Source: an uncultured Bacteroidales bacterium
GTDB lineage: Bacteria; Bacteroidota; Bacteroidia; Bacteroidales; Paludibacteraceae
NCBI GenBank assembly: GCA_900317345.1
Contig: ONGK01000005.1
Span: 32,099-96,098, forward strand
Length of the DNA: 64,000 nt
Direction: 5' to 3'
Part shown: piece by piece, positions 44,266-64,000 of the stretch
Position numbering within the stretch: position 1 is the first letter of the stretch
Layout of the letters: each line of letters begins with the position of its first letter
Position numbers and translations under genes: made by a program
The notes under the pieces: model-generated
Database searches by the model: none
Told to the model about the DNA's origin: nothing
What the model saw: only the letters and a program-made list of their open reading frames with translations

Positions 44266-44303
44266 ACTCTTGAACCCTTAAACTCTTATACTCTCTAACT
44301 AAT

Positions 44304-45380: not shown

Positions 45381-45408
45381 ATCTCCATAACTCATAACCC
45401 CTTCAACC

Positions 45409-45978
45409 ATGAAGCTGAATATCAACAAGGTCAATTGGCCCGACGCCTTTCCATATTGCCCGGAAACAACCGTCGAAATAACCAACAACCATGAGTTCTT
45501 GTTTCTCCAATACACCGTCAAGGGAGAACAACTCCGTGCGGCAACCGTCGACGACCAGGGACCTGTTTGGGAGGATTCATGTGTCGAGTTCTTCTGCCAA
45601 GTGCCCGGAGACAATCACTACATGAATTTCGAAACCAATTGTGTCGGAGCGATGGTGGCTTCGCGCAGGCTCGGCAGAGATAAAGAGGTGCAACCCCTTC
45701 CGGCGGAACAGATAGCGCTCATTGAGCGGAAATGCACTTTCCCGCGTCAGAAAATAGAAGAGAAAGACGGACTTTTCGAATGGACCGTAGAACTCAAAAT
45801 ACCTCTCTCCCTCATCTTCCGAGATCCGAAACTGACCTTTCCGCTGACGCTGCGGGCTAATTTCTACAAGTGCGCCGACAAAACCAAACGCCCGCACTTC
45901 GTCAGCTGGCAACCCATCTACCTGCCAAAACCGGATTTCCATTGCCCTGAGTTCTTTGGAGAAATAGTCCTGAGTTAA
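45409..45978 (+). CDS. carbohydrate-binding family 9-like (DOMON-like) protein, no signal peptide
   Basis: 189 aa. WEDSCVEFFCQVPGDNHYMNFETNCVG and RANFYKCADKT blocks are typical of CBM9-like proteins. Confidence 0.5.
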   Translation: MKLNINKVNWPDAFPYCPETTVEITNNHEFLFLQYTVKGEQLRAATVDDQGPVWEDSCVEFFCQVPGDNHYMNFETNCVGAMVASRRLGRDKEVQPLPAEQIALIERKCTFPRQKIEEKDGLFEWTVELKIPLSLIFRDPKLTFPLTLRANFYKCADKTKRPHFVSWQPIYLPKPDFHCPEFFGEIVLS

Positions 45979-46034
45979 CCTCGCTCTCTCTTTACCAAAC
46001 ATCCCTCCCGACTGTTTCCAAACCACCCTCTGAC

Positions 46035-46071
46035 CGCATACGTGATATCTCCCTTCGCGTATGCGTTTTTT
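46035..46071 (+). terminator. Rho-independent terminator closing the metG-to-CBM9-like unit
   Basis: Stem CGCATACG/CGTATGCG, 15-nt loop, then TTTTTT. Confidence 0.75.
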
Positions 46072-46090
46072 CTGCTATCTGTACCGTTCT

Positions 46091-46150
46091 TAAGACGAAC
46101 TATTGACGAACTATAGACGAATTATTAACGAACTATTAACGAATTATTAC
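46091..46150 (+). repeat. Array of five phased 11-bp repeats (copy B of the shared upstream module)
   Basis: taagacgaa ctattgacgaa ctatagacgaa ttattaacgaa ctattaacgaa ttattac. Confidence 0.9.
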
Positions 46151-46374
46151 TATAGGCACACAATACTCACGCAATACCCACACCGGAGTCATACCCTACT
46201 TTGGAGCACCTCAAAGGCTACGATGCTTGCTCTTTTGCTACCTTCTTTTTCGAAACATTACGAAATAACAAATGAAACATATAATATGCTCATTATCACT
46301 AATTTATGTTTTATTGTTTCGAAAATATGCTCGATAACATATTTTAATGTTACGAAAACTCCGAAAAAATGGTG

Positions 46375-46382
46375 TAATTTTG
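46375..46382 (+). promoter_or_regulatory. -7 box (TAATTTTG) for the AgaS-to-beta-helix unit
   Basis: ccgaaaaaatggtgTAATTTTGcggcg, 32 nt upstream of ATG 46414. Confidence 0.6.
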
Positions 46383-46413
46383 CGGCGTAAATAAAAATTT
46401 TATTTATCTAACT

Positions 46414-47532
46414 ATGGACAACTTCACCTTTAATGAGATTCATCAGCAGCCCGCTATGTGGCGCAAAGAACTGCAGGCGCTGTTGGCTGCTAAGGCTGAG
46501 ATTAGTGCATTCATGCACAAGTATTTAACCCCGGATACAGACATCGTCCTTACTGGTGCCGGTACGTCCGCTTTTATCGGAGATGCCTTACTTCCCGTAA
46601 TGCGTGGCATGTGGCAAAATGTGCGTTCCGTGCCGACAACCGACCTCATCACCCATTCGGAATATCTGCTCTCGAAAGAGCGTCCGTTGCTGCTCGTCAG
46701 CTTCGCTCGTTCCGGTAACAGCCCGGAGAGTGTCGGCGCTGTGAACTTGGCTAACAAGCTCTGCAAGAACGTGGCGCATGTCTACATCACCTGCAACAAA
46801 AACGGCAAACTGGCGCAACAGGCTGCAGGCAAAGACAACATCCTCCTGCTTCTCTTGCCCGAGGAAACCGACGACAAGTCGCTGGCAATGACCAGCAGCT
46901 TCTCCACCATGCTCCTTACCTGCCTCATGCTTGGTCATATTGACCGACTGGACAAGGATGCCGATATGATTGAGAAGACCGCTAAGAATGCGGAGACTGT
47001 GATTGCCGAGTATGAGGAGAAACTCAAAGCCATCGGCGAGCGTCCGTTCGAGCGTGGTGTCTTCCTCGGTTCCGGTGCTCTCAAAGGTATCGCAGAGGAG
47101 TGCCATCTCAAGCTGCAGGAACTCACCGACGGTGCTGTCGTTTGTAAGTTTGATAGCTTCCTCGGCTTCCGTCACGGACCGAAAGCGGTGGTCAACAACA
47201 AGTCGTTGGTAGCATACCTCATGGTCGATGACGAGAAGGTGCAGCGTTATGAGCGCGACCTCGTTAAGCAGGTCGATGCTAATAACACACCGGTAGCACA
47301 AGTCATCGTCATTGCAGGTCGCAAACCTGAACTGCCGGGCGTGAAAGCGGACCTCGTTGTGGCAATGCCGTATGGACCGAAGGATACCGATTTCTATGGT
47401 ATCGTACCATACGTACTCGTTGGCCAGCTCCTCGGCTTCTATGCTTCGAAGGCACACGGCCTTAACCCCGATGCTCCATCCGTTTCCGGAAACATCCACC
47501 GTGTGGTAGAAGGTGTCACCATCTATGAATAA
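46414..47532 (+). CDS. agaS: SIS-domain sugar-phosphate isomerase/deaminase, AgaS-like
   Basis: 372 aa. EIHQQPAMW, double SIS layout (TGAGTSAFIG...SFARSGNSPES...). The length fits AgaS. Confidence 0.75.
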   Translation: MDNFTFNEIHQQPAMWRKELQALLAAKAEISAFMHKYLTPDTDIVLTGAGTSAFIGDALLPVMRGMWQNVRSVPTTDLITHSEYLLSKERPLLLVSFARSGNSPESVGAVNLANKLCKNVAHVYITCNKNGKLAQQAAGKDNILLLLLPEETDDKSLAMTSSFSTMLLTCLMLGHIDRLDKDADMIEKTAKNAETVIAEYEEKLKAIGERPFERGVFLGSGALKGIAEECHLKLQELTDGAVVCKFDSFLGFRHGPKAVVNNKSLVAYLMVDDEKVQRYERDLVKQVDANNTPVAQVIVIAGRKPELPGVKADLVVAMPYGPKDTDFYGIVPYVLVGQLLGFYASKAHGLNPDAPSVSGNIHRVVEGVTIYE

Positions 47533-47566
47533 AAGAATTGTAAATAACTAAATTGTAAATATCACT

Positions 47567-48796
47567 ATGGCAAAAACTGAGAATATCCTCCGCGTAATGG
47601 AGGAGCGTAAAAAAGCAACTGGAGTTCCTATGACACTTTTTGCGGCTTGCCCGAACTCCCTGTCTGTAATCAAAGCATCGTTCCGTGCTGCAAAGCGTAA
47701 TAACTCGCCTATCTATTTCGCTACCACCCTTAATCAGGTGGACTGCGATGGCGGTTATACCGGCATGACGCAGGAGATCTTCACCAAGATTCTTGCTCGT
47801 GAGGCTGCGGCTGTGCACTATACCGGACCGTACGTAGTGGCTATCGACCATGGTGGCCCGTGGCTCAAGGATATTCAGTCCATCGAGCGTTGGGACACCG
47901 AGCGTGCCATGAATGGCGTCAAGAAGAGCTATGAAGCAGCTATCCTTGCCGGATACGACCTCATTCACGTGGACCCGACCGTAGATATCTTCCTGCCGAA
48001 GGGCCAGATTATTGACATCCATGTGGTTGTAAAGCGCACGGTTGAGTTAATCAAGCATGCCGAGGATTTCCGCAAGGCGCATAATATCGCTCCTATCTCC
48101 TATGAGGTAGGTACAGAAGAGGTGCACGGAGGTCTGGCTGACGAGAAGACCTTCGATACCTTCCTCGAGGGCTTGAAGAAAGGTCTGCACGAGGTAGGTC
48201 TGGATGATATCTGGCCTTGCTTCATCGTAGGTAAGGTAGGTACCGACCTTCACACTACCTTCTTTGATGCGAATGTAGCACGTGAACTGACAGCAAAAGT
48301 TCGTCCGTATGGTAGCTATATCAAGGGTCACTATTCCGATGATGTAGATAACCCGGAGGATTATCCGAAGGCAGGCATGGGAGCAGCGAACGTAGGTCCG
48401 GAGTTCACCATGAATGAGTATGACGCACTGGCTGAACTCGAGGAAGAGGAGAAGAAACTGCATGCAGAAGGCAAAGTGGCTCAACTCAGCAACATGACCA
48501 AGGTGCTCTGGCAATGCGTTTATGACTCCAACCGCTGGAAGAAATGGCTCCGTGGTGACGAGGTAGGAAAAGACCTCAGCGAGTGCTCGCCTGAGCGCCA
48601 GCAGTGGCTCGTGAAGACCGGTTGCCGTTATATCTGGCAGAAACCGGAAGCGCTTGTAGCTCGTCAAATGCTCTATGATAACCTTGAGCGCCTCGGAATC
48701 CAGGCGGAGGAAGTGGTCCTCATGCGCATCGAGCATAATATGGATAAGTATTACAATGCATTTAATATTGTTAATCTTAACGATTATCTGAAATAA
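47567..48796 (+). CDS. GatZ/KbaZ-family protein (tagatose-bisphosphate aldolase accessory subunit / tagatose-6-P epimerase family)
   Basis: 409 aa. ...FAACPNSLSVIKASFRAAKRNNSPIYFATTLNQVDCDGGYTGMT... parallels the GatZ/KbaZ N-terminal block. Confidence 0.7.
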   Translation: MAKTENILRVMEERKKATGVPMTLFAACPNSLSVIKASFRAAKRNNSPIYFATTLNQVDCDGGYTGMTQEIFTKILAREAAAVHYTGPYVVAIDHGGPWLKDIQSIERWDTERAMNGVKKSYEAAILAGYDLIHVDPTVDIFLPKGQIIDIHVVVKRTVELIKHAEDFRKAHNIAPISYEVGTEEVHGGLADEKTFDTFLEGLKKGLHEVGLDDIWPCFIVGKVGTDLHTTFFDANVARELTAKVRPYGSYIKGHYSDDVDNPEDYPKAGMGAANVGPEFTMNEYDALAELEEEEKKLHAEGKVAQLSNMTKVLWQCVYDSNRWKKWLRGDEVGKDLSECSPERQQWLVKTGCRYIWQKPEALVARQMLYDNLERLGIQAEEVVLMRIEHNMDKYYNAFNIVNLNDYLK

Positions 48797-48802
48797 ACAG
48801 TC

Positions 48803-50185
48803 ATGAAAAAGCTGTATATCTTTACGCTGATGGTGGTGATGCTGGGGGCATGCGGGTGCGAAAAACCGCAGTCTCCGGTTGATCCGCAGCCTTATGAGGA
48901 ACCGGTGATGGTGAATCCAGATATGTCGCTCATTACGAGTTCGGTACCCGTCACGGATAATTGGATTTGGAGTGGAAAACCGGCTATCACCATACGTATT
49001 GAGAATAAAAACGACAGTGCGGTAAAACTGGATACAAAGGTGAAGATAACCACGGATACCAAAAGCAATGTGGTTACGCTCACCGATACCGTCATCGTTT
49101 CAGCTCGGAGTGTGAAAGAGTTTGTCGTGAAAACGGACGAAGATATAGATCCCGGTTTCTATCGTGCCGCATGTTACGTTCATGGTAAGACGGTGCGTAA
49201 TTTCTGCTTTGGTATTGACCCCTTCGATATCGTTTCTGCGCCGGATAAGCAAACCGACTACGACCAGTTCTGGCAGACGGCGAAAGACCAGCTGGCTGAG
49301 GTGGATATGAAGGCTACCCTCAAGGAGATAACCGAGCGTAGTTCGGCCAAGCGCAAGGTCTATCTGGTGGAGATGTACTCTGTACCGGATGGTCTAACCG
49401 GAGCCCCTGTGAAGATTCGGGGATATTATCTCGAGCCGCAGGATGGAGCCCAACATCCGGTTATCCTCCACTTCTATGGGTATGACACCCAGGGAAGCAA
49501 ATCGAAATGCGAGTGCCCCTATGGTGGCTCGTCGGAGTATGCCGAGTTCTATCTCTCCCACCGCGGACAATACCTCAACAACCGCCCTGCGGGAACGAAC
49601 CCCGGCGTGGATGAGGAAACCGTTAACATCTACGGCGACTGGTTTGCATACAATTTCGGAGACAAGGACAGCTATTATTATCGCGGTGCGTTTATGGATT
49701 GCGTGCAGGCTGTGCGCTTCATGGCAACGCGCGAGACAAGCGATATGACGCATCTCTTCGCGGAAGGTTCCAGCCAAGGCGGGGCACTCAGCTATGCTTG
49801 TGCTGCCCTCAGCGACTATCCGTTCACGGCACTGGCGCCCAATGTGGCGTTCCTGGGTGACTTCCCGGACTATTTCAAGATCGTAGGATGGCCTGCTGAA
49901 ACGGCTAAGAAAGAGGCGAAAAAGAAAGGAATGACGGACGAAGAGATGTATACCTTCCTCTCGTATTTCGACACCAAGAATCTGGCAACCCGTATCTCGG
50001 CCGCTGTGCTGGCGAGTAGCGGACTGCAGGATGGCACATGCCCACCGCATACCAATATTGCGCCGTTTAACAACCTCCGCACACCGGAGGCTGACAAAGA
50101 GTATATCTTCGCGCCGGAGATGCAGCATGACTTTCCTGCCGGATGGGTTTCCAAATGGAATAACTTCTTTAAAGCAAGAATGTAA
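48803..50185 (+). CDS. lipoprotein with CE7 acetyl esterase (AXE1/cephalosporin-C deacetylase) domain
   Basis: Lipobox LGACGC. An Ig-like spacer of about 120 aa, then the AXE1 core with nucleophile elbow AEGSSQGGALS and C-terminal ...HDFP. Confidence 0.75.
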   Translation: MKKLYIFTLMVVMLGACGCEKPQSPVDPQPYEEPVMVNPDMSLITSSVPVTDNWIWSGKPAITIRIENKNDSAVKLDTKVKITTDTKSNVVTLTDTVIVSARSVKEFVVKTDEDIDPGFYRAACYVHGKTVRNFCFGIDPFDIVSAPDKQTDYDQFWQTAKDQLAEVDMKATLKEITERSSAKRKVYLVEMYSVPDGLTGAPVKIRGYYLEPQDGAQHPVILHFYGYDTQGSKSKCECPYGGSSEYAEFYLSHRGQYLNNRPAGTNPGVDEETVNIYGDWFAYNFGDKDSYYYRGAFMDCVQAVRFMATRETSDMTHLFAEGSSQGGALSYACAALSDYPFTALAPNVAFLGDFPDYFKIVGWPAETAKKEAKKKGMTDEEMYTFLSYFDTKNLATRISAAVLASSGLQDGTCPPHTNIAPFNNLRTPEADKEYIFAPEMQHDFPAGWVSKWNNFFKARM

Positions 50186-50198
50186 TTAATAAATCAAC

Positions 50199-51143
50199 AT
50201 GAAAACATTTGATATTATCGCTTTAGGCGAATTAAACGTCGATTTGATTCTCAATCAGATAGAAGGGCAACCGGAAATAGGTAAAGAGAAGTTTGCTAAG
50301 CGAATGACACTTACCTTGGGTAGTTCCACCGCTATCTTTGCTGCAAACGCAGCGGCACTGGGTGCTAAAGTGGCCTTCTGCGGCATGATTGGAAACGATA
50401 GTTTCGGCGACCTCGTGGAGACAAGTCTTCGCGCAAAAGGGGTGGACACACGCTATCTCATCCGCCAGGATAAGTACGCTACCGGTGCTACCATCTGCAT
50501 GAGTTATGATGAGGACCGTGCGAACCTGACTTACCAGGGCGCCATGGATTACATGGGGCTGGCAGACATCAACCCCGAGGTCTTCAAGCAGACCAAGCAT
50601 ATCCATATTTCCTCTATCTATATGCAGAGCGGTGTGAAGCGCGACCTCATGAAGATTCTCGAGCTCTGCAAAGAGAATGGTGTTACTGTCACGCTGGATA
50701 GCCAGTGGGATCCGACTGAGCAATGGGACCTCGACTACAAAGCCGTCCTGCCTTTGCTCACCGTCTTCATGCCCAATGAGACCGAACTTAAGTTCCTCAC
50801 ACGCTCAGAGACCTTGGAAGAGGCCATCGAGAAGATTCGTCCGTACACCAACGCTGCGGTTATCAAGTGCGGCAGTAAGGGCTCTATCCTCATGCGCAAA
50901 GGCCAACCCGACCGCAAGCAGGCGGCATTGCTCAATAAGAATGTAGTCGATTGCATCGGTGCCGGTGACTCGTTCAACTCGGGCTTCATCACACGTCTCG
51001 CTGCTGGCGATCCGTTGGATAGATGCCAGGAGTATGGTAACATGACCGGAGCTGTCAATACCACTGCAGCTGGTGGCACCACCGCTTTCACGTGCCGTGA
51101 AGACGTAGAGCGTATCGGCCGTGAACGCTTCGGCTGGAATTGA
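50199..51143 (+). CDS. PfkB-family sugar(-phosphate) kinase
   Basis: 314 aa. ALGELNVDL, GGSTAIFA-like block, and the C-terminal DCIGAGDSFNSGF motif. Confidence 0.8.
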   Translation: MKTFDIIALGELNVDLILNQIEGQPEIGKEKFAKRMTLTLGSSTAIFAANAAALGAKVAFCGMIGNDSFGDLVETSLRAKGVDTRYLIRQDKYATGATICMSYDEDRANLTYQGAMDYMGLADINPEVFKQTKHIHISSIYMQSGVKRDLMKILELCKENGVTVTLDSQWDPTEQWDLDYKAVLPLLTVFMPNETELKFLTRSETLEEAIEKIRPYTNAAVIKCGSKGSILMRKGQPDRKQAALLNKNVVDCIGAGDSFNSGFITRLAAGDPLDRCQEYGNMTGAVNTTAAGGTTAFTCREDVERIGRERFGWN

Positions 51144-51166
51144 ACCCTTAAACTCCTTGAACTCAA

Positions 51167-53524
51167 GTGAAAAAAATCGCTTTCATAGTACTCTTCGTAG
51201 CAGCGGCGCTTCATGCGTCAGCTGCTACGTGGTATGTGCGTACAGACGGACAGGACGGCAATGACGGCAAGTCCTGGGAGAACGCGCAGGCGTCTATCCG
51301 TCTGGGCATAGATAACTGTCGCGTGGGCGACACGCTGCGCATAGAGGAGGGTACGTATTATGAAGGCATCATCCTCAAGGAGGGAATAACGATTATCGGC
51401 GAAGGACAGGTTATCCTCGATGGTACCGGCCTGAATACGCGTCTTATCTCCTGTGTCGCTGATTGCAAACGGCCTACGCGTATCGAGCATATCACCCTGC
51501 AGAATGCCCGTCATAACCAGCGAGGCGGAGCAGCGTGGCTGCGTGGAAAGGTCGTCATGCGGCATTGCGTCATTCGCGGATGCAGCGGTTTGCAGTGCGG
51601 AGGTGTGCTTATCAAAGGTGACCTGCCGGAAGCCTCAGCACTCGGTGCACGACTCGAAGATTGTCTCATTTACAACTGCTCGGCTACGGGGCATGACTGG
51701 CCCGATGCAGGCGGAGTGGCGAACTTCGATGGTGTACTGAGGAATTGCATCATCGCTAATAACTATGGAGATCGATACGGAGGTATCCACTCCGAGAGTT
51801 CGGTCTATAGTTGTACCATGTGGGGAAACAAGTCCGAGTATGGCTTTGTGGACCCATCCAATTATGTCTCGGATGAGAGCACGTCCGGCATGAGCCGCGC
51901 GGACGAAGGTTTCGAAGACCATTTCTTTGCGAAACCCTGGCTGGACGCGAATAACGAAGCGGAGAACGGTCCGCATTTCCGTGACCCATCAACGTTTGTC
52001 GGGGTGCCCATTACCGATGCGGAGCAGGCTATCATGCTGGCAGCCGACTATACCATCGGCGCGCCGACGCACCGAATCGCCTCCATGCCGCCTGCTTCAC
52101 CGCGCGACTATGCCCCAACGAATCTTGTCAAGATACCTGAACCCTTACCCTATACAGTTCCTTCTTTCATCGGTCATCTCCTAGACAATACAGCACCGCT
52201 CGTGCCGAGAGAGCAACCCTATTGCATGGTGGCTACCATCAATGGTGACCCCAAGACCCGAATGGGCTTCTGCTGGTTTACCAACGAAGGTGTCACAAAC
52301 GGCGAAGTGCAAATCATTGCTAAAGCCAATGCTACAGAAGAGGACTTTAATCGTGAAATCTCAAATCACAAATCACAAATCACAAATGTCGTAGCCACCG
52401 CAACGACCACTCCGCCATTGCACTACGCCATCTCCTCTTCGGGTATTCTGAAGAAGGCGAAGATAGATAAAAGCACCGCTTTCCGCTATGTTAGCCATAA
52501 AGCGCTGGCTCAGAACCTCACGCCCGGAACGGATTATTCCTATCGCGTCGGCTATGAGGGACATTGGAGCGAGATAGGCCATTTCCGCACCGCGGATGCA
52601 GAGCAGGGCGAATTTTCCTTCATCTACATGACCGATAGTCATATACAAGATAAGGAATACGTGGATGAGGCGCGCTTGTGTGCGGATGCGGTCGCGCGTA
52701 ATGAGCGCAAAGCACGCTTCTGTGTCTTCCCGGGCGACTTTGTCGATACCGGTACGGACAATAACTCCGAATGGGAATGGGAGCGCTGGTTCGAAGAAGC
52801 GCTTAAGCCCGTTATTATGGCGATGCCGATTGTTCCGACCGATGGTAACCATGACGACAGCCCGCTGCTTAACTATTCCTATCATTTCAATACCGATACC
52901 ACATTTAATTTAGAGACGAAAATCCGTCCGCAGTTTGCGGGCATCAACTATAGTTTCTGCTATGGAAATATGCAACTCATTGCATTCTCCATGCAGGATT
53001 TCTGGCGAGGAGAATATAACTATACTTCCGGCACCTCGGAGTTCCTCACGCGCGATTTGGGCGGTTGGTTCAAACGGCAAGTGGCGGCAGCGCCGGATGC
53101 TACATGGCGTGTAGGCTTGGTGCATAAGAATCTCTTCTCCGGCTCTGACCATCAGCGCGATAAAGAGACCCCGCTGCTTCGTGCTACCATGTTGCCGCTG
53201 ATGAAGGAGTGTAATATCAATCTTGTCCTGCAGGGTCATGATCATTGCTATGAAGTCATCGGTCCCGTGGACTCTACGCTCTATTTCATTGGTGCTACGT
53301 GTGGCGCGAAACGCTATACACCGCTCACGCGCGAAGAGATGGACGCATCCAAGCATATCCACCATGTGGAGAACTATTTCGACCTCTTCTCGCATCTCGC
53401 GCAACCCGGCGCACCGAGTTATACCCGCGTGACTGTGAAGAAAAACCAGCTGTTGCTCGAGACCTTCAAGGTCCTTCCCAACGGCCAAACAGAATTGTTT
53501 AACACCATTTATCTAAATAAATAA
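51167..53524 (+). CDS. secreted beta-helix + purple-acid-phosphatase-like metallophosphoesterase (paralog P1)
   Basis: GTG start with signal peptide MKKIAFIVLFVAAALHASA. Beta-helix opening TWYVRTDGQDGNDGKSWENA plus C..NC/NN repeats. Metallophosphoesterase motifs MTDSH, PGDFV, TDGNHD, GLVHKN, QGHDHCYE. Confidence 0.8.
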   Translation: MKKIAFIVLFVAAALHASAATWYVRTDGQDGNDGKSWENAQASIRLGIDNCRVGDTLRIEEGTYYEGIILKEGITIIGEGQVILDGTGLNTRLISCVADCKRPTRIEHITLQNARHNQRGGAAWLRGKVVMRHCVIRGCSGLQCGGVLIKGDLPEASALGARLEDCLIYNCSATGHDWPDAGGVANFDGVLRNCIIANNYGDRYGGIHSESSVYSCTMWGNKSEYGFVDPSNYVSDESTSGMSRADEGFEDHFFAKPWLDANNEAENGPHFRDPSTFVGVPITDAEQAIMLAADYTIGAPTHRIASMPPASPRDYAPTNLVKIPEPLPYTVPSFIGHLLDNTAPLVPREQPYCMVATINGDPKTRMGFCWFTNEGVTNGEVQIIAKANATEEDFNREISNHKSQITNVVATATTTPPLHYAISSSGILKKAKIDKSTAFRYVSHKALAQNLTPGTDYSYRVGYEGHWSEIGHFRTADAEQGEFSFIYMTDSHIQDKEYVDEARLCADAVARNERKARFCVFPGDFVDTGTDNNSEWEWERWFEEALKPVIMAMPIVPTDGNHDDSPLLNYSYHFNTDTTFNLETKIRPQFAGINYSFCYGNMQLIAFSMQDFWRGEYNYTSGTSEFLTRDLGGWFKRQVAAAPDATWRVGLVHKNLFSGSDHQRDKETPLLRATMLPLMKECNINLVLQGHDHCYEVIGPVDSTLYFIGATCGAKRYTPLTREEMDASKHIHHVENYFDLFSHLAQPGAPSYTRVTVKKNQLLLETFKVLPNGQTELFNTIYLNK
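52356..52387 (+). repeat. heptanucleotide repeat (AAATCAC) inside P1 coding sequence
   Basis: AAATCTC AAATCAC AAATCAC AAATCAC AAAT: three perfect units, one degenerate unit and a partial unit. It encodes ISNHKSQIT, which is absent from paralogs P2 and P3. Confidence 0.9.
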
Positions 53525-53538
53525 AAACACGTATTGTT

Positions 53539-55305: not shown

Positions 55306-55324
55306 TCCTTTAAATATAATTATT

Positions 55325-58300: not shown

Positions 58301-58576
58301 CAGCCTGGGGCTCCCTCTTTCTCCAAGTTCACGGTGAAGAATGATGGCATCGAGGTGAATTCCTATACTGCTTCCGCAAGCGGAAAAGCAACTCTTATCA
58401 ATACCATGAAGGTAAAGCGCACCAAACCGCATACCGTTCCGTATCTTGGTATTAACGAAGTAGAGGTGCAGATGAAAGAAGGCGAGAAATTCATCCGCAA
58501 CGGACAGATGTTCATCCTTAAGAATGGACAGATATACAACGTCCTTGGCCAGAGGGTAGAGAAAATGGAACAATAA
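55325..58576 (+). CDS. secreted beta-helix (choice-of-anchor-Q-like) + Big_2 + metallophosphoesterase + C-terminal tail (paralog P3)
   Basis: Track ORF 55190-58576 trimmed to ATG 55325 (MKRFLFLLTLATAVLCANA). HYVSQTNGNDSNDGLSWETA, ...DINGVVRPKGDGVDVGAYEYD, Big_2 (NWVSDNPAIATVDNHGTVVGVAEGQT). Core motifs MSDSH/PGDFV/TDGNHD/QGHDHCYE. Tail ...KFIRNGQMFILKNGQIYNVLGQRV. Confidence 0.8.
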   Translation: MKRFLFLLTLATAVLCANAANHYVSQTNGNDSNDGLSWETAMQTITAGFSACSDGDTLFIAAGTYGERVTVKSGSFVSMMGGYEAATGMRDPEVFKTIMDGSELGKILIKAEAEPTIPLLYDGLILQNAEYSSNGAGVYMRGNMTVNNCIIRNCNSQGGGGGIYVDIADKTLPTAISNCLIELCTSNGSGGAIHNTGALIENCIIRGCSGTYGSIVLRNGGVVRNCVLYNNTGGDSWPNSGGIYNPDGMVVNCTFANNAGAKYAGIHSDNRVFNSVMWGNRGEEGFADPANYIAGAPSSNNIADQGFNSESFVSLSLNEDNNAVDGPHFVAPTNFVGVPQNAAQIAIMQAADWSIEAGSFLIDKGLASQAPETDINGVVRPKGDGVDVGAYEYDPNAPVIPLQGFNIYQDSVFINVESMEALSVLFTPRNATNRTLNWVSDNPAIATVDNHGTVVGVAEGQTIIRATSVDGGFTDTVVAVISPKPPVYYPVEVLAADSLYPMENYTVPSFIPFLVAKEAARIDSFSATPEEIASIAGKLEVMYAEAAKLVSKEEPYNMVATFNGNPRTHMGFAWFTNEGITEGKVQIIAKEYATAADFEGDQVLTLNAVATTTVPLRYAVSTSGLPKATRLSPKTAFTYVSHKALATNLMPGTAYCWRVGYEGHWSKIGHFRTQNAAQGEYSFIYMSDSHIQDAEYVENAKWCATTAANTVPEARFCLFPGDFVETGTDNNSEWEWERWFEESIKPVIMKMPIVPTDGNHDDSPLLNYDYHFNTDWGFANAAQTKPQFKGITYSFVYGDVLFLVYSLQDWWRAHGSSETGMTSTYLSTDVKNWFLEQCAAHPNTKYRVTLSHKNIFSGSGHSVDGEIPMFREIMLPILKECEIDLAIQGHDHCYEVIGPVDWDSQTVVEGSVANVVDTIVDTNTNINGKWGGEFTTDDGTMYFIGATCGRKRYYPYSRQKMEEKYTTDPELLFDGSHHNVKDYFDLFTGLFGQPGAPSFSKFTVKNDGIEVNSYTASASGKATLINTMKVKRTKPHTVPYLGINEVEVQMKEGEKFIRNGQMFILKNGQIYNVLGQRVEKMEQ

Positions 58577-58595
58577 TTTTTAATTTATTAAAATT

Positions 58596-60743
58596 ATGAA
58601 AAGGTTATTTTCATTTTTCGCTGCAATGCTGGTGGCGTTCGTAGCGAATGCAGCGGTCATTAATATCAATACCAATACCCCCGATGCACTCCGTAAGGCG
58701 CTGGCCGGTGCTGCCAGCGGTGATATTATTGTTATGGCTGCCGGAACATATGTAGAATCCAACGGCGATTATATTGCTTTCACCGGCAAGGAGGTAACGG
58801 TGATGGCGGAACCGGGCGCGGAAGTTATTGTTGTGCCCCAAGTGCCGGTTCGTTTGAAATCCGGTGCACGCGCAGAGTTCATCAATATCAAGTTTGACTG
58901 TGGTCATATTAAGGACAAAGGCTCGTACACTGAGATTATTGTGCCGGCTGATGGCACAGCCAATAAACGCGTAATCCTCGATGGATGTGAGTTCTACGGC
59001 TGGAAGCAGAAAGATTATGCCATTGTTCACACCCGCACGGATCGTCAGTTGGATACGCTGGTTATCAATAACTGCTATTTCCACGACAACCTGTATAATT
59101 GTGTATGGCTGAGATATCCAAGTATCGCTTGCTTGCGCATTACCAATTCCACTTTTACCAACGTCGCTACGGATGCAGCCGCACCTTCAATCGGTGTGAT
59201 TCAAGTCGATGCTACGAGTGGAGATATGCTCATCGACCATTGTACGTTCTACAACTGTGAAGCGAAGAATACCGACTATGGCGCCATTAAGATACCGGGC
59301 GGAGCTCCGATTGTTTCCAATTGTATCTTTGCTATGCCGGAGGAGTATGCTAACGGCCGCGCTATCCATAATGCAGCCGGAGAGGTTAAAAACTGCCTCA
59401 CCTTCAACTACACATCTGATGAGAACACCGGTATCCATTCCGGTCCTACCATCACTGCTTGCCTCCAGGCTAATCCGCTCTTCGTGGATGCTCCTAACGG
59501 AGACTTGCGTATTCAGGGTGGTTCTCCGGCGTTAGGAGCAGGCACGGAAGGATCTGACCTCGGTGACCCGCGCTGGATTCCGCAGATGGAGTATTATCTC
59601 GCGGGAAGTATGACCGAATGGGGACCTGATCCGTTGTATAAACTGGTGAAGAATCCGGAGAATGAAGAGGAGTATATGATTGCCAAAACGTTTTATGCCG
59701 GCGACCAGTTTAAGATTGCCAAGTCCGATGGTTTGACTATCGCGAATACAGACTGGTATCCATCCGGCATGGACAACAACTATCAGATTACTGCTTCCGG
59801 CAACTATACCGTATATTTCCGTCCGGACGGACAAGGCGGCGAAGGATGGCACGAAGGCTATATCTATGCGCAAGCAGAGAGTTTAGGTCCGTGGGACAGT
59901 TGGTTTGGCGATGCAAGCATGCAGCAGGAGACCAATTCGTATCTCGCTTATGATCCTATCGCTGAGAAAGTCACGGTCTTCATCCGTAATGACAAGAACG
60001 GACAATGGCAGGCGCAGGTGAAATACCAAGGTATGCCTGCTGAGGCGGATAAATGCTATCATGTGGCCCTCAAGATGAAGTCAAACCATGATATCACCGG
60101 CATCACCCTCAAATGGCAGGACGACAATAATACGCCGAATGTGATTTATGAGAACCAGTCCATCAGCCTCGCTGAGGACGAAGAGTTTATCTATGATGCC
60201 GTAGTAGCAGGAGTGGTAGGAGAGAAGGGTAGCAATGGTATCCTTGTTCTTGACTTCGGTTTCGCCCACAACGGCGATATCATTGAGGTCTATGGTGTGA
60301 CTATTGAAGAAACAGCATGTCCTGCTCCTCCGATTTACTACCTCGTGGGTTCGATGACCGACTGGGCAGCAGAAGCGGAATACCTCTTTGCGGAGAACCC
60401 GGAAACGGAAGGCGAATACTTCCTTACCACCACTCTCGCCGTAGGCGATGCTATCAAAGTGGTGGGTGTTCAGGATGATGACGAGACCTATTATCCGAAT
60501 GGTTTGAGCAATGAGTATGTAGTGGACGCTGCGCATGCAGGGGAGACCATCGTTTACTTCCGTCCTGCCGGCAATGCGGAATGGGCTGCGTTTGGCGGTT
60601 ACTTCTTCATCCCGGATAACGGACAGGGAATTGAGGATGTCAATATCGATACCAAAGCCACAAAGCTTATCCGCAATGGACAGCTCTTCATTCGTAAGAA
60701 TGGTAAGATTTATAACGTTATCGGGCAGCAAATCGCCCGATAA
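58596..60743 (+). CDS. secreted beta-helix protein with CBM-like modules and C-terminal tail
   Basis: 715 aa. Signal peptide. The N-terminal roughly 300 aa look beta-helical (GTYVESNGDYIAF, DHCTFYNC, NCIF, ANPLFVDAPNGDLRIQGGSPALGAG). Two YYL(A/V)GSMT.W modules flank a CBM4/9-like domain. Tail KLIRNGQLFIRKNGKIYNVIGQQIAR. Confidence 0.7.
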   Translation: MKRLFSFFAAMLVAFVANAAVININTNTPDALRKALAGAASGDIIVMAAGTYVESNGDYIAFTGKEVTVMAEPGAEVIVVPQVPVRLKSGARAEFINIKFDCGHIKDKGSYTEIIVPADGTANKRVILDGCEFYGWKQKDYAIVHTRTDRQLDTLVINNCYFHDNLYNCVWLRYPSIACLRITNSTFTNVATDAAAPSIGVIQVDATSGDMLIDHCTFYNCEAKNTDYGAIKIPGGAPIVSNCIFAMPEEYANGRAIHNAAGEVKNCLTFNYTSDENTGIHSGPTITACLQANPLFVDAPNGDLRIQGGSPALGAGTEGSDLGDPRWIPQMEYYLAGSMTEWGPDPLYKLVKNPENEEEYMIAKTFYAGDQFKIAKSDGLTIANTDWYPSGMDNNYQITASGNYTVYFRPDGQGGEGWHEGYIYAQAESLGPWDSWFGDASMQQETNSYLAYDPIAEKVTVFIRNDKNGQWQAQVKYQGMPAEADKCYHVALKMKSNHDITGITLKWQDDNNTPNVIYENQSISLAEDEEFIYDAVVAGVVGEKGSNGILVLDFGFAHNGDIIEVYGVTIEETACPAPPIYYLVGSMTDWAAEAEYLFAENPETEGEYFLTTTLAVGDAIKVVGVQDDDETYYPNGLSNEYVVDAAHAGETIVYFRPAGNAEWAAFGGYFFIPDNGQGIEDVNIDTKATKLIRNGQLFIRKNGKIYNVIGQQIAR

Positions 60744-60788
60744 CGCGAAAAATTTAATATTTTTCTTGCACAATTGAAAAAATTGTTG

Positions 60789-60796
60789 TAACTTTG
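60789..60796 (+). promoter_or_regulatory. -7 box (TAACTTTG) for the last gene
   Basis: cttgcacaattgaaaaaattgttgTAACTTTGcggcg, about 85 nt before ATG 60881. Confidence 0.55.
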
Positions 60797-60880
60797 CGGC
60801 GTTATCCTGAAAAATGTATATTTTGAATAACACAACCCAATCAATTAATTTAACCAATTTATTAACTAAATTCTAATCGT

Positions 60881-63800
60881 ATGAGAAAAATCTTTTCTTT
60901 CTTCGCTGCGATGCTTATTGCATTTGTAGCGAATGCAGCTACGATTAACATCGACAACACTACTCCGGACGCATTGCGCCTTGCTTTGGGCAATGCTGCT
61001 GATGGTGATGAGATTGTCATGGCTGCAGGTACGTATGTAGAGTCCAATGGTGACTACATTGCTTTTGCTGGCAAGCATGTTATCGTAAGGGCTGCTGATG
61101 ACGCAGCGGTTACTATTCAGCCGCAAGTGCCTATTACCGTTTCCGCAGGTGGATGGGCACATTTCGTTAACATTAAATTTGATGCCTCTCGTCTGACTGA
61201 GCTTGCTGATTGGTATGAGCATCTGATTTATGCTGCTGACGATGATGAAAGCAACACTATTGTGCTGGATGGCTGCGAGTTCTACAACTTTACTCTGAAC
61301 AAGTCTATGTTGTACTGCTCTACTGCCAATCGCCTGGGTGGTGTAGCTATTCGCGACTGCTACTTCCACGATCTTATGAAGAGCATTCTCTTCGTTGAGA
61401 ATATTTCTGCAGATATTGAAGTGGTAGTAACTAACAGTACTTTTGCTAACATCTCGACGAACACCGAGAGCTATTGGGCAGGTATCATTGACCTAAGAAA
61501 TCCTGCTTCTCGGTTACTTGTTGACCATTGTACGTTCTACAATGTAATCCCGATGAACACCGATTACTCCTGCGTTTCTAAGATTACGCTCGCTGACGGT
61601 ATTACATCCAACTGTATCTTTATGCTCCCGACTGCGCAGGATAACATTCGTGCTATGCGCGGTGTTGCAGCTACTAACTGTATCACTTACAATTATCTGA
61701 AGGATAGCGGAACCGGTATCCATAGTTCTGTTACTCAGACCAACTGCGTTCAGGCAGACCCGCTCTTTGTTGACGCTGCTAACGGAAACTTCACACTTGG
61801 TGAGGGCTCTCCTGCTCTGACGATGAATGATGGTGCTCCTATCGGTGACCCGCGTTGGTGGCCCGCTGCTCCTGTTCCTCCCACTCCGCAACCTGTTGAG
61901 GTTTCATGGGATTGGTCTAAGGCTAGTTATTCCAGTGCTTCAGAGTCTTCCGTAGTATGGAGTGGTGATGATGTCACTCTTACCCTTGCTAAGGGAACCA
62001 GCCAGACAGCTGCAAATAACTATCTTGGCGGTACTGGTTCTTATAACCACACTCGTGTGTACCAGAACCAAACATTGACCTTTGCTCCCGCAGAAGGTGT
62101 TACTATTGAATCTATTGAAATTACCGCTACTAGCAATGACTATGCTGGAAAATTTAAAAATTCCACATGGACAAATGCTTCTGCTTCTACTTCTGGTTCA
62201 ACAGTAACTATAACTCCGGTAGATGGAGCAAGCGCTGTAGTATGTACAATCACTGCAGCTACTCGTGCAACCGAAGTGAAGGTTACATACCTGAAGGGTG
62301 AAGCTCCTGCAGTGGCTAAACCGGCTATCGCTGGTGAAGAATTCTTCTATGACACAACGCTCGTTACTATCACTTGTGCTACCGAAGGTGCAGCTATTTA
62401 CTACACTCTCGATGGTACAGAGCCTACTGCTGCTTCTACTCAGTACACCGCAGCGTTCAACCTGACGGCTTCTGCTACTATTAAGGCTATCGCTATCCTT
62501 GGTGATGACGCGAGTGCAGTTGCAGAGAAAACATTTACCAAGAACCCGTCGTTCGCTTCGTTTGAGGCATTGATTGCTGCTGGAGTGGCAGACAAAACGC
62601 TTATAGAGGTATCTTTTGAGAAACTGGTGATTGATAGTTTCTACGTATCTACATCCAATAATGTAAGTACTAATAAAGGTATTTATTTCACTATCAATGG
62701 CGTAGCTTATGAGATTTATAAAGGCAGTGCAGCAATTGACGCATCTTGGGAAATTGGCGGTAAGGTATCCGGTACAATCCGCGGAGAGTGGCAGCACTAT
62801 GTTAGCACACAGAAGGGCATTGATATCTGGGAAGTTATTCCATCCGCATCCGATTGGACCTGGGCTGCACTGACTTATGCTGCACCTGTAGAGGGTTGCG
62901 ATTGGGACAACATCGAGTTCCTCGGTGGACCGGCTGAGTATGCTAACCAATTCAAGGTTTGCAAGGCAGGTGCGCAACCGAATGTTGCAAATATCCAAGT
63001 TGCACCGTGGGCTGACAATAACGTAGGTATTTATGTGAACTTCCCGGATGCTGTTATCGGTGAAATCTCGCTGCCGGAAGGTCAGTATAAGGTAGAAGGC
63101 GCTGGTGTTCTACTCTATCTCTCTGCATTTACTGCAAAAGAGACAGAATTCACTATGCAGTGGCAAGACGGTGTTTATACTCTGACCGTTCTTAATGTAA
63201 ACGGCACAGATCCGGTTGTTGGTGAGAAGAAGTATTACCTCGTTGGTTCGATGAACAACTGGACACCTGGTCTGACTGATGTTTTCGGACAGAACCCGGG
63301 TTCTGAAGGTGAGTATATGGCGAAAGCCACACTGGCTGTGGGTGATGAGTTCAAGGTAATCGGTATTACGAGTGGCGTGCTGAACCCCGATACCGCTTGG
63401 TATCCGGGAGGAACGAATAACAACTATATCGTTGACGCTGACCACGCTGGTGCTGCTAAGAATATCTACTTCCGTCCGGATGGTCAAGGTGGCGAAGGAT
63501 GGCACCATGGTGTTATCTTCGTTGAGCCGAACCCCGCTCCGCAAGATGCATTGAAGGCAGTTAGTGATTCGACTACTTGGAACTTCTCGAAGTTGACACA
63601 AAATACCGAAAGTTCTCTCTATAATAGCAGTGATGATGCTATCAAACTGAGTGGCGAAACAACTCCGAGCACCGCAGACGAGCTTATCTATGCTAATTAT
63701 GATAGCCTCTGGACTATTGCAGCGGAATTCGATGGTGAGGCAATAGCATTTACCGGACAATATCCTATTCGCAAGAACCAGTTCTGCCAGAATGGTGTGC

Positions 63801-64000
63801 TCCGTATCAAGACAACTGTTGCCGGAAACATCTATGTTAAGTTCTCCGATACCGGTTCAAAAGCAAGTGAGACAGCCGTTAAACGCTACTTGATGGTTAA
63901 TGGTGATTCCACAGAGTATTGGGCTTCTCGTGAGAAAACAGGTGAAGGTGCTTATACTGCACAACTCAATGTAGAAACAGGCGCAATCCATGTTCCTGCA
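60881..64000 (+). CDS. large secreted beta-helix/CBM protein, paralog of 58596-60743, 3' end beyond window
   Basis: The frame is open from ATG 60881 to the window edge (1040 codons, hand-translated). It is absent from the ORF track because there is no stop. MRKIFSFFAAMLIAFVANAATINIDNTTPDALRLALGNAADGDEIVMAAGTYVESNGDYIAF... parallels the neighbouring gene. It also has the Pro linker PAAPVPPTPQP, a hexosaminidase-C-like block AAIYYTLDGTEPTAASTQY, and a YYLVGSMNNW module. Confidence 0.75.
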   Translation, partial: MRKIFSFFAAMLIAFVANAATINIDNTTPDALRLALGNAADGDEIVMAAGTYVESNGDYIAFAGKHVIVRAADDAAVTIQPQVPITVSAGGWAHFVNIKFDASRLTELADWYEHLIYAADDDESNTIVLDGCEFYNFTLNKSMLYCSTANRLGGVAIRDCYFHDLMKSILFVENISADIEVVVTNSTFANISTNTESYWAGIIDLRNPASRLLVDHCTFYNVIPMNTDYSCVSKITLADGITSNCIFMLPTAQDNIRAMRGVAATNCITYNYLKDSGTGIHSSVTQTNCVQADPLFVDAANGNFTLGEGSPALTMNDGAPIGDPRWWPAAPVPPTPQPVEVSWDWSKASYSSASESSVVWSGDDVTLTLAKGTSQTAANNYLGGTGSYNHTRVYQNQTLTFAPAEGVTIESIEITATSNDYAGKFKNSTWTNASASTSGSTVTITPVDGASAVVCTITAATRATEVKVTYLKGEAPAVAKPAIAGEEFFYDTTLVTITCATEGAAIYYTLDGTEPTAASTQYTAAFNLTASATIKAIAILGDDASAVAEKTFTKNPSFASFEALIAAGVADKTLIEVSFEKLVIDSFYVSTSNNVSTNKGIYFTINGVAYEIYKGSAAIDASWEIGGKVSGTIRGEWQHYVSTQKGIDIWEVIPSASDWTWAALTYAAPVEGCDWDNIEFLGGPAEYANQFKVCKAGAQPNVANIQVAPWADNNVGIYVNFPDAVIGEISLPEGQYKVEGAGVLLYLSAFTAKETEFTMQWQDGVYTLTVLNVNGTDPVVGEKKYYLVGSMNNWTPGLTDVFGQNPGSEGEYMAKATLAVGDEFKVIGITSGVLNPDTAWYPGGTNNNYIVDADHAGAAKNIYFRPDGQGGEGWHHGVIFVEPNPAPQDALKAVSDSTTWNFSKLTQNTESSLYNSSDDAIKLSGETTPSTADELIYANYDSLWTIAAEFDGEAIAFTGQYPIRKNQFCQNGVLRIKTTVAGNIYVKFSDTGSKASETAVKRYLMVNGDSTEYWASREKTGEGAYTAQLNVETGAIHVPA

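Follow-up and report, generated by a model that had tools for sequence, protein, structure and literature searches.

An AgaS/GatZ sugar-phosphate module linked to secreted beta-helix metallophosphoesterases in uncultured Paludibacteraceae: a candidate half of a galactosamine polysaccharide utilization locus

Results

Organization of the gene cluster

The DNA analysed in this study is a stretch of 64,000 nucleotides (referred to below as the window) from an uncultured Bacteroidales bacterium of the Paludibacteraceae (GenBank assembly GCA_900317345.1, contig ONGK01000005.1, positions 32,099 to 96,098). From position 46375 to its end it carries a gene cluster in which predicted cytoplasmic sugar-phosphate enzymes are joined to secreted metallophosphoesterases (MPEs) and beta-helix proteins. 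A first-pass annotation, made from the letters alone, had described co-directional genes with gaps of 6-34 nt after a promoter-like box at 46375. This description holds: all nine genes lie on the + strand, and the gaps from g1 to g8 are 34, 6, 13, 23, 14, 19 and 19 nt, followed by 137 nt ahead of g9. The genes are as follows (window positions; GalN, galactosamine; P, phosphate).

g1, 46414-47532, + strand: AgaS-family SIS isomerase/deaminase, predicted to convert GalN-6-P to tagatose-6-P
g2, 47567-48796, + strand: GatZ/KbaZ-like protein, predicted tagatose-6-P / fructose-6-P 4-epimerase
g3, 48803-50185, + strand: CE7 acetyl esterase lipoprotein with an N-terminal extension of ~150 aa
g4, 50199-51143, + strand: PfkB-family sugar or sugar-phosphate kinase
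g5, 51167-53524, + strand: GTG start; secreted fusion of beta-helix, FN3-like and metallophosphoesterase domains
g6, 53539-55305, + strand: metallophosphoesterase lipoprotein (FN3-like + MPE)
g7, 55325-58576, + strand: secreted beta-helix, Big_2, FN3-like and metallophosphoesterase protein with a C-terminal tail motif
g8, 58596-60743, + strand: secreted PL6-like beta-helix/DUF5123 protein with SusF/SGBP-like and CBM4-like domains and a C-terminal tail
g9, 60881 to past the window end (64000), + strand: paralog of g8, 1370 aa in contig L001

Gene families were assigned with Pfam and NCBIfam profiles, and these scans upheld the domain families that had been named for g1-g9, apart from two qualifications, given below, on the carbohydrate-binding module (CBM) and purple acid phosphatase (PAP) labels. 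The extent of the cluster had been drawn too narrowly: it continues for ~4 kb past the window end, and it has a functional tie to four upstream genes (42150-45978). The DNA past the window end, read from an identical contig (L001; ENA k141_1351979, 64.9 kb), contains the rest of g9, two small open reading frames (ORFs) and then a third paralog, g10 (734 aa, Beta_helix/DUF4957/DUF5123). We placed the end of the cluster after g10, because a phosphoribulokinase/uridine-kinase-family gene (Pfam PRK) and, on the other strand, priA come next.

Cytoplasmic sugar-phosphate enzymes

The g1 product contains a SIS domain and gives strong full-length matches to AgaS-type structures (PDB 3odp, 3i0z and 3c3j; E 4e-79 to 3e-68). 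The product of g2 matches PF08013 (GatZ_KbaZ-like) with 110 bits (cut-off 26.7) over residues 15-379, and its PDB matches are 3txv (E 2e-11) and 2fiq (E 1e-5); as it scores far under the KbaZ and GatZ equivalog cut-offs of NCBIfam, it represents a divergent subfamily. The fourth gene encodes a PfkB protein (Pfam, 162 bits). Both GatZ and KbaZ have C4-epimerase activity on fructose-6-P and tagatose-6-P (PMC11907403), and the operon contains no aldolase gene; therefore the simplest closed route leads from GalN through GalN-6-P and tagatose-6-P to fructose-6-P. The first step would be catalysed by the g4 kinase, and the pathway is probably closed by GatZ-type 4-epimerization to fructose-6-P, as judged from the activities reported in that work.

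These enzymes are well conserved. The median identity to the window proteins across species is 94% for GatZ, 91% for PfkB and 87% for AgaS, as against 58-71% for the secreted proteins. The identity of g2 ranges from 91 to 98% across ~39 species-level genomes, which is unusually high for an accessory enzyme of a sugar pathway. Methionyl-tRNA synthetase (metG) is 89% identical in the two loci where it is comparable, and by this two-locus yardstick the cytoplasmic enzymes appear to be conserved about like metG, which is consistent with a heavily used pathway.

Related loci and the SusC/SusD genes

A set containing one genome per species, found through g5, yielded 67 loci with 10 kb flanks. All of them come from metagenome-assembled genomes (MAGs) of uncultured rumen/hindgut Paludibacteraceae/Bacteroidales of cattle, goat, sheep, deer, buffalo and horse, and the contigs encoding the window's own proteins include a record of PRJEB21624, which we take to be a cow-rumen metagenome study. 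Among the fetched sequences, the locus is seen only in uncultured rumen/hindgut Paludibacteraceae, and its g1-g7 gene order is found again in ~45 species-level genomes of these bacteria. Mapping with tblastn showed that the PfkB gene and g5 are both present in 44 species-level genome loci, and that strict g1-g6 colinearity is retained in 34 of these. In the distant loci L053, L058, L062 and L070, the AgaS, GatZ and PfkB genes still lie beside a g7-type gene, in another order. The catabolic and secreted genes thus form one conserved unit, as had been proposed, whose linkage outlives rearrangement in distant relatives.

Those ORFs of the related loci that have no match in the window disclosed a second, recurrent block further downstream. 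Further loci were obtained from metagenomes by a scan seeded with the GH36 gene of this block, followed by mapping and Pfam analysis. In ~40 metagenome loci the canonical first block reads AgaS-GatZ-CE7-PfkB-beta-helix MPE-MPE-beta-helix/Big_2 MPE-(beta-helix/CBM). The canonical second block consists of an opposite-strand DeoR gene and then Amidohydro_2 lipoprotein-GH36-SusC-SusD-262-aa hypothetical-DUF4874/DUF4832-GH31-EamA. Each of the 24 genome loci whose downstream flank measures 6 kb or more runs on into the DeoR / Amidohydro_2 / GH36 / SusC genes (in the other 20 of the 44, less than 6 kb follows the last phosphoesterase gene). A phosphoesterase gene and a SusC homolog occur together in 36 fetched loci, 29 of which have SusD as well, and the SusC and SusD proteins of the related loci were confirmed by Pfam (CarbopepD_reg_2 and Plug; SusD_RagB).

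The window itself has no SusC/SusD genes, as had been noted from its letters: Pfam gave zero matches to these families among the large window ORFs scanned, tblastn with the SusC and SusD proteins of the related loci was empty, and neither gene lies in the 8 kb past the window end. The claim built on this, that the system is organized without SusC/SusD, fails, since all 24 flanked genome loci reach SusC and 36 loci combine it with phosphoesterases. The absence is best seen as the result of a rearrangement in the lineage of this genome and not as a property of the system, and the SusC/SusD half would be expected to be present elsewhere in the genome. The annotation had also held that homologous clusters residing in SusC/SusD loci with a known, non-phosphorylated substrate would count against it; homologous clusters do reside at SusC/SusD genes, with no substrate known for them.

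Several products of the second block are informative. The GH36 protein of the relatives matches "A type blood alpha-D-galactosamine galactosaminidase" (9awt/9ayu; E 2e-56), and the GH31 protein matches a solved GH31 alpha-galactosidase (8j53; E 5e-213); the Amidohydro_2 neighbour gave zero PDB matches with phmmer. A locus from a horse-faeces MAG (L066) contains SusC/SusD together with GH36, DUF4874/4832, beta-helix phosphoesterase, HAD, CE7 and g10-like genes and, inside the SusC/SusD locus, an alkaline phosphatase gene (L066:17170-18345). The metagenome contigs ERZ808242 and ERZ808259 (L126 and L127) carry genes for DeoR, AgaS, GatZ, PfkB, Amidohydro_2, GH36, SusC, SusD, DUF4874/4832 and GH31.

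Between g9 and g10 (L001:16678-17126), where the layout departs from the canonical one, two small ORFs (45 and 104 aa) overlap each other and may have been inserted together as a cassette; Pfam gave no match for the longer one, and the shorter one has no precomputed family.

Metallophosphoesterases

The products of g5, g6 and g7 all combine Pur_ac_phosph_N (48-57 bits, cut-off 30) with Metallophos (47-50 bits) in Pfam. To this g5 adds a weak Beta_helix match and g6 the lipobox LVAC, while g7 adds Big_2 and a choice-of-anchor Q / DUF4957-type beta-helix (Pfam, NCBIfam) and ends in the tail FIRNGQMFILKNGQIYNVLGQ. In both g5 and g7 the beta-helix is right-handed and N-terminal. The g6 protein shares 52-57% identity with the matching parts of g5 and g7.

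A lack of metal-ligand integrity had been named as a result that would refute the earlier proposal; no such lack is seen. The ligands of g5 (D490-x-H492, G523-D524, N561-H562, H653 and H691-x-H693) are intact and occupy invariant columns of a 43-sequence alignment; g6 has the motifs DSH, GDFVE, GNHD and GHDH, and the same five-motif set is intact in g5 and g7. This corresponds to the active calcineurin-like set (DxH, GD, GNH(D/E), H, GHxH) and not to the seven-ligand set of PAPs (GDxG / GDxxY / GNH(D/E) / VxxH / GHxH). In all three proteins motif I is (T/S)DSH, i.e. DxH and not the PAP-type DxG, and motif II is GDFV(D/E), in place of the PAP GDxxY, so that the Tyr ligand of true purple acid phosphatases is lacking. 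The proteins g5-g7 are therefore PAP-like in architecture, with generic diesterase/monoesterase (calcineurin-type) ligands; the earlier label of purple-acid-phosphatase-like proteins fits the N-domain and the fold but not the tyrosine ligand.

The AlphaFold2 (AF2) model of g5 has a mean pLDDT (predicted local distance difference test) of 70.6, and residues 140-320, most of the beta-helix, fall below 50. Because of this low-confidence part, Foldseek placed only the phosphoesterase half of the protein, whose neighbours are plant purple acid phosphatases/phytases (6giz, 2e-19) and PhoD of B. subtilis (2yeq, 7e-14). PhoD is a teichoic-acid-degrading phosphodiesterase. The likeness of g5-g7 to these enzymes lies in the FN3-like N-domain and the metallophosphoesterase fold; the differences are an identity of only 10-16% for g5, the divergent motifs I and II, and the fusion of g5 and g7 to a beta-helix and of g7 also to Big_2.

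With phmmer, g5 had zero PDB sequence matches. It has more than 900 homologs, the best 120 being full-length at 69-98% identity; among 1.84 billion cluster representatives, searched exhaustively, 1335 are related to it at E<=1e-10. Of the best 150 relatives, ~12 match both the beta-helix and the phosphoesterase parts. The beta-helix-phosphoesterase fusion, which the annotation had called unusual, is thus uncommon, yet not unique. The names of the homologs are uninformative, and neither a characterized protein nor, by sequence, a solved relative could be tied to the family.

Esterase and beta-helix proteins

The g3 protein has a lipobox (LGAC) and matches AXE1 with 148 bits (Pfam). An alignment with cephalosporin C deacetylase of B. 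subtilis (1l7a) brings GSSQGG, the GLQD aspartate and a histidine shortly before the C-terminus into register; g3 thus has the GxSQG nucleophile and the Ser-Asp-His triad that characterize family CE7.

In Pfam, g8 matches Beta_helix and DUF5123, and g9 matches DUF5123 and CHB_HEX_C_1/Fn3_assoc. That g9 is a paralog of g8 with its own promoter was supported by 48% identity over the first 330 aa and by an exact promoter box at 60789. In the AF2 model of g8 (pLDDT 87.6), the N-terminal helix resembles PL6 alginate lyases (Foldseek 1.3e-10 with 7dmk; also 7o7t and 5gkd), phage capsule depolymerases, RbmB and PL9, and the match to PL6 by sequence is weak (E 2e-4). The later domains resemble B. thetaiotaomicron SGBP-B, SusF and CBM4 (7kwb, 4fe9 and 1gu3 among the matches listed). 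The helix and the C-terminal domains of g8 superpose on these PL6 and SusF/SGBP-B-type structures at an identity of 12-18%, and the likeness comes from a predicted structure. Homologs of g8 carry precomputed CBM_1st_SusF, X25, CBM48 and CBM26 annotations, i.e. types first described in alpha-glucan-binding proteins. No CBM match was found in Pfam at E<=1 in the C-terminal 385 aa of g8 or in the last 810 aa of g9, so that the assignment of CBMs is based on the structure model of g8 and on the annotations of its homologs. The CBM label given to g8 in the annotation is to this degree upheld, without a Pfam match on the window protein itself.

The SusF and SGBP-B proteins differ from the beta-helix/CBM proteins of the cluster in their anchoring: in place of a lipoprotein anchor, the latter carry a signal of the signal-peptidase-I type together with a novel C-terminal tail. 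This tail of ~25 aa, K..K.(I/L)RNGQ(L/M)FIxKNGKxYNVxGQ, follows a disordered linker and is shared by g7, g8, g9, g10 and most relatives. Its positions are the following.

58499-58576, + strand: C-terminal tail of g7
60675-60743, + strand: C-terminal tail of g8
L001:16300-16398: C-terminal tail of g9
L001:19300-19393: C-terminal tail of g10

In the fetched loci it is present on 72 of 114 g7-type, 46 of 63 g8-type and 19 of 26 g10-type ORFs, as well as on 23 unrelated ORFs. Neither Pfam nor NCBIfam, with its sorting domains of the type IX secretion system (T9SS), matches the tail, which also differs from the canonical T9SS C-terminal domain at L126:120-3140; it may serve as a so far undescribed tag for sorting or anchoring.

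Promoters and candidate operators

The following regulatory features were found in and around the cluster.

46035..46071, + strand: terminator-like hairpin after m1 (see the next section), CGCATACG ... CGTATGCG then TTTTTT, read from the sequence
46095..46149, no strand: tandem repeat with an 11-bp unit, ACGAACTATTA, 5.0 copies, 86% matches (Tandem Repeats Finder)
46248..46357, no strand: candidate AgaR-type operators, TTTCGAAA at 46248 and 46317, TTACGAAA at 46258 and 46350
46375..46387, + strand: Bacteroidetes-type -7 promoter box TAATTTTG(CGGCG) ahead of g1, exact match to TAnnTTTGCGGCG
60789..60801, + strand: second -7 box TAACTTTG(CGGCG) ahead of g9, exact match to TAnnTTTGCGGCG

The two boxes are the only exact copies of TAnnTTTGCGGCG in the window; if one mismatch is tolerated, the count rises to 7, as against 1.7 expected by chance. 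The element AATTTTGC is kept in 34 of 44 related upstream regions. Scans of 45300-64000 for sigma-70 promoters and intrinsic terminators gave no more matches than shuffled sequences and are uninformative for the Bacteroidetes promoter type; the hairpin was not reported by the consensus scan because its loop exceeds 8 nt.

One copy of TTACGAAA (46350) lies directly upstream of the -7 box of g1. In the related loci, 39 of 44 regions upstream of AgaS and all 71 intergenic regions between DeoR and Amidohydro_2 contain the palindrome TTTCGAAA; the window has only four copies, two of them at 46248 and 46317 and none near the g9 promoter. As the palindrome is common to both promoter regions, it suggests that both halves of the system would belong to a single regulon under an AgaR-like repressor. 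The 11-bp repeat, with one helical turn per unit, sits between the m1 hairpin and the operator/promoter region of g1, and L006 has another short tandem repeat at the equivalent place.

Upstream module

Ahead of the cluster, and following metG, lies a module of four genes.

m4, 42150..43661, + strand: secreted DUF4874/DUF4832 TIM-barrel glycoside-hydrolase-like protein (DUF4832 181 bits, DUF4874 119 bits; signal peptide)
m3, 43636..44265, + strand: HAD-IA hydrolase, sugar-phosphate phosphatase or mutase type (Pfam Hydrolase/HAD_2)
m2, 44304..45380, + strand: N-acetylhexosamine 1-kinase (NahK) homolog (Pfam APH)
m1, 45409..45978, + strand: small CBM9_2-like protein without a signal peptide (CBM9_2 181.6 bits)

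The m2 protein matches the N-acetylhexosamine 1-kinases 4wh1 and 4ocj (E 7e-68, residues 4-354), and the best NCBIfam matches of m3, HAD-1A3 and glucose-1-phosphatase, are both under cut-off. The m1 gene is syntenic with m2-m4 in L006, L008, L010, L011, L031, L033 and L106, and in L106 the NahK module adjoins the AgaR-like DeoR gene. The four genes as a group are syntenic with the cluster in several genomes. A paralog of m4 follows SusD in ~40 related loci. With phmmer, m4 had zero PDB sequence matches. The DUF4832 protein SIR_1591, encoded by the pel locus of Streptococcus intermedius, disperses Pel aggregates like the hydrolase domain of PelA (PMC12345266), and streptococcal and clostridial pel loci also carry genes for a CotH-like kinase and a polyphosphate polymerase (PMC7112168, PMC12345266).

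Discussion

Predicted substrate and pathway

We consider it somewhat probable (roughly 0.55) that the cluster is the enzyme-rich half of an AgaR-type polysaccharide utilization locus (PUL), split from its SusC/SusD half, and that its substrate is an alpha-linked polymer of N-acetylgalactosamine (GalNAc) and/or GalN, with or without galactose (Gal), bearing O-acetyl and phosphate or phosphodiester groups. The matches of AgaS, the AgaR-like DeoR protein, GH36, GH31 and NahK mean that every informative marker indicates alpha-linked GalNAc/GalN and Gal. The same proteins, with GatZ, sustain the earlier proposal that hexosamine or galactose-type sugars feed the tagatose-6-P branch. That the substrate would be phosphorylated, or phosphodiester-linked as the annotation had proposed, is suggested only by the presence of the phosphoesterases and by the alkaline phosphatase of the horse-gut variant L066. 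Pel and galactosaminogalactan (GAG) are alpha-1,4 GalNAc/GalN(/Gal) polymers, and the candidate targets would be microbial: a Pel-like or galactosaminogalactan-like exopolysaccharide, or GalNAc-containing teichoic-acid or capsule-type polymers.

The proposed mechanism presumes co-transcription of the cluster genes and the predicted activity of every enzyme. Outside the cell, g8, g9 and g10 would bind the polymer and possibly cleave it, the g5 and g7 fusions and the g6 lipoprotein would strip phosphate-linked decorations or cross-links, the CE7 lipoprotein g3 would take off O-acetyl groups, and m4 (DUF4874/DUF4832) would cut the backbone. A SusC/SusD pair whose genes lie at another place in the genome would import the oligosaccharides. 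In the periplasm, the Amidohydro_2 deacetylase, GH36 alpha-galactosaminidase and GH31 alpha-galactosidase, whose three genes are known from relatives and not seen in the window, would free GalN and Gal. In the cytoplasm, GalN would be phosphorylated by the PfkB kinase g4 and GalNAc by the NahK-like m2; AgaS (g1) would then form tagatose-6-P, which the GatZ-like g2 would epimerize to fructose-6-P. An AgaR-like DeoR repressor bound to TTTCGAAA operators would co-regulate both halves.

Comparison with known systems

In the relatives, the contiguous locus resembles the Sus-like PULs, with an adjacent pair of a SusC-like TonB receptor and a SusD-like protein, surface proteins, periplasmic glycosidases and a regulator. 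In the window, the enzyme half is detached from SusC/SusD and retains the co-localized secreted carbohydrate-active enzymes and binding proteins (CE7, DUF4874/4832, beta-helix/CBM). PULs are usually controlled by hybrid two-component, SusR or extracytoplasmic-function sigma regulators; the present system differs in its DeoR/AgaR-type regulator and in its several beta-helix-metallophosphoesterase fusions. A literature search found no described PUL with such fusions. What would be new here is a PUL in which, under an AgaR-type regulator, a GalN catabolic module is joined to a family of glycan-directed metallophosphoesterases, the PUL organization itself being known.

Similarity to the aga regulon of Enterobacteria and Shewanella is found in the AgaS and GatZ/KbaZ families, in the AgaR-like DeoR gene of the relatives and in the repeated promoter operators. 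In contrast to that regulon, the window has a PfkB kinase in place of a phosphotransferase system (PTS), the AgaA deacetylase and the KbaY aldolase, and the AgaS and AgaR scores are under the equivalog cut-offs; AgaA, KbaY and PTS genes were not seen in any locus examined, and the AgaR-like gene only in relatives.

The conversion of blood group A by Flavonifractor plautii is a two-step process in which deacetylation precedes cleavage. The relatives have a comparable arrangement, a lipoprotein amidohydrolase gene directly before GH36; their putative deacetylase differs in belonging to Amidohydro_2, another fold, and neither gene is in the window. As regards the Pel/GAG hydrolases (PelA, SIR_1591), one or two DUF4874/DUF4832 TIM-barrel proteins are kept and the GalN/Gal glycosidases fit; m4, with no PDB sequence match, is likened to SIR_1591 by the DUF4832 family only.

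Evidence against the proposed substrate

A number of observations weigh against the galactosamine-PUL interpretation. The g1 protein scores 372 bits on TIGR02815 (AgaS), under the 529-bit cut-off; all NCBIfam equivalog scores of g4 are far under cut-off (IolC 139, ribokinase 124 and tagatose kinase 89 bits); and the DeoR neighbour of the relatives reaches 250 bits on the AgaR equivalog, whose cut-off is 260. No homolog of the second block (SusC/SusD, AgaR, GH36, Amidohydro_2 or the transporter) was found in the window, and part of the model is therefore borrowed from relatives. The metagenome counts are biased by the GH36 selection, and the unbiased genome set has flanks of only 10 kb. The beta-helix part of the g5 model is of low confidence, and a PL6-like beta-helix would suggest a polymer of uronic acids, for which the other genes of the locus give no indication. 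To our knowledge, covalent phosphate is part of no Pel or galactosaminogalactan structure. Finally, no CE7 or phosphoesterase gene was found within 10 kb in L126 and L127. As the core locus can thus exist without phosphoesterases, the esterase and phosphoesterase genes appear to be an add-on module to a galactosamine core locus, and phosphate need not belong to the core substrate.

Alternative explanations

This last observation also favours a different role for the phosphoesterases, which we regard as unlikely: the glycan may be unphosphorylated, and the enzymes would attack extracellular DNA (eDNA), RNA or polyphosphate bound ionically to a cationic galactosamine polymer, or merely scavenge phosphate. 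Pel is a cationic polymer that binds eDNA. The phosphoesterase ligands (DxH / GDxxD / GNHD / H / GHxH) are of the generic diesterase type and not those of PAPs, one source names a homolog CpdA, and Gram-positive pel loci encode a polyphosphate polymerase (PMC7112168, PMC12345266). However, the phosphoesterase domains are fused to glycan-type beta-helices and encoded inside a sugar operon with gaps of 14-23 nt, and three to five paralogs are kept in ~45 species. Moreover, no nuclease-type family was detected in the locus, and the structural neighbours are phosphatases, phytases and PhoD.

Harvest of host mucin-type O-glycans is, in our view, very unlikely. Here the substrate would be the alpha-GalNAc (Tn / sialyl-Tn) of salivary and gut mucins, used by deacetylation and alpha-galactosaminidase, with CE7 acting on O-acetyl groups. 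Ruminant saliva is a large supply of GalNAc-rich, O-acetylated mucin, every fetched homolog comes from gut or rumen metagenomes and MAGs, and the GH36 protein is related to the blood-group-A galactosaminidase; the NahK-like and AgaS steps are typical of the use of mucin-derived GalNAc (PMC5583593). Yet the loci inspected showed no member of a sialidase, fucosidase, beta-galactosidase, beta-hexosaminidase or mucinase family, and it is not obvious what the PL6-like beta-helices, starch-type CBMs, endo-acting DUF4874/4832 proteins and three phosphoesterases would do on mucin.

It is highly improbable that the beta-helix proteins are genuine lyases acting on a polymer of uronic acids (of the pectin, alginate or teichuronic type) and that the GalN genes serve a minor component or another substrate. 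The g8 helix is closest to PL6 alginate lyases both by sequence and by Foldseek, with matches to PL9 and RbmB, and alginate foraging by rumen microbiomes has been reported (PMC13377030). No family that processes unsaturated uronates (GH88/GH105, KdgF or a 2-keto-3-deoxygluconate (KDG)-kinase equivalog) turned up in the loci examined, though, and the AgaR-like regulator and the alpha-galactosaminidase and alpha-galactosidase types of glycosidase also speak against such a substrate.

That g1-g4 and g5-g9 are independent units merely lying side by side is barely credible: g9 has its own promoter box without an operator motif, and the catabolic genes occur without phosphoesterases in L126 and L127, but no promoter box lies within the 6-34 nt gaps, the secreted-esterase gene g3 is set between two cytoplasmic genes, and gene order is kept in 34 species, with linkage retained after rearrangements.

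Two further candidate substrates were considered and dropped. Inositol/phytate was raised by IolC as the best match of the PfkB protein and by the phytases among the structural neighbours; the lack of any further iol gene speaks against it, as do AgaS, GatZ, AgaR, GH36 and NahK, all of which indicate galactosamine. Chondroitin/dermatan was raised since PL6 includes chondroitinase B; the glycosidases are alpha-specific, and no linked sulfatase or unsaturated-uronate genes were found.

Significance

If the galactosamine-PUL interpretation is correct, galactosamine-rich, probably phosphorylated and possibly microbial polymers would be a niche of uncultured Paludibacteraceae that recur in the MAG collections of many hosts. 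With its kinase, AgaS and GatZ-type epimerase, the locus would then provide a complete candidate pathway by which Bacteroidales bring galactosamine into glycolysis, a set of enzymes to dismantle Pel-, GAG- or teichoic-type matrices, and an indication of a large uncharacterized family of secreted FN3-metallophosphoesterases. It also offers a caution for readings made from sequence alone: the apparent lack of SusC/SusD would reflect a local rearrangement and no property of the system.

A more far-reaching version of this interpretation is speculative and quite unlikely. In it, the beta-helix-metallophosphoesterase fusions would be a new class of glycopolymer-directed phosphodiesterases with which the bacteria graze the matrix or wall of Gram-positive neighbours, the target being a Pel-like alpha-1,4-galactosaminan that is phosphate-modified or cross-linked by polyphosphate/eDNA. 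Were this so, it would define a bacterial "matrix-grazing" locus under an AgaR-type repressor and provide indirect evidence that the CotH-kinase and polyphosphate-polymerase genes of pel operons place phosphate on or around Pel.

Other features of the window

A hybrid two-component regulator (4936-8493; Reg_prop/Y_Y_Y, HisKA, HATPase, receiver and AraC helix-turn-helix domains) is of the usual PUL type; it lies 38 kb from the cluster, with no SusC/SusD beside it. At 30915-32838 (- strand), a gene for an Indigoidine_A-family protein (pseudouridine-5'-phosphate glycosidase type) adjoins a second PfkB kinase gene; such a pair is typical of pseudouridine catabolism, and this PfkB protein is unrelated to g4. 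The region 32863-35210 encodes a protein with a response-regulator receiver and PglZ (the architecture of PorX, a T9SS regulator), followed, with a 4-nt overlap, by an endonuclease/exonuclease/phosphatase-family gene. The gene at 19148-25084 (- strand) encodes a 1978-aa protein with three Big_2 domains and a Listeria-Bacteroides repeat, which is probably a large surface protein.

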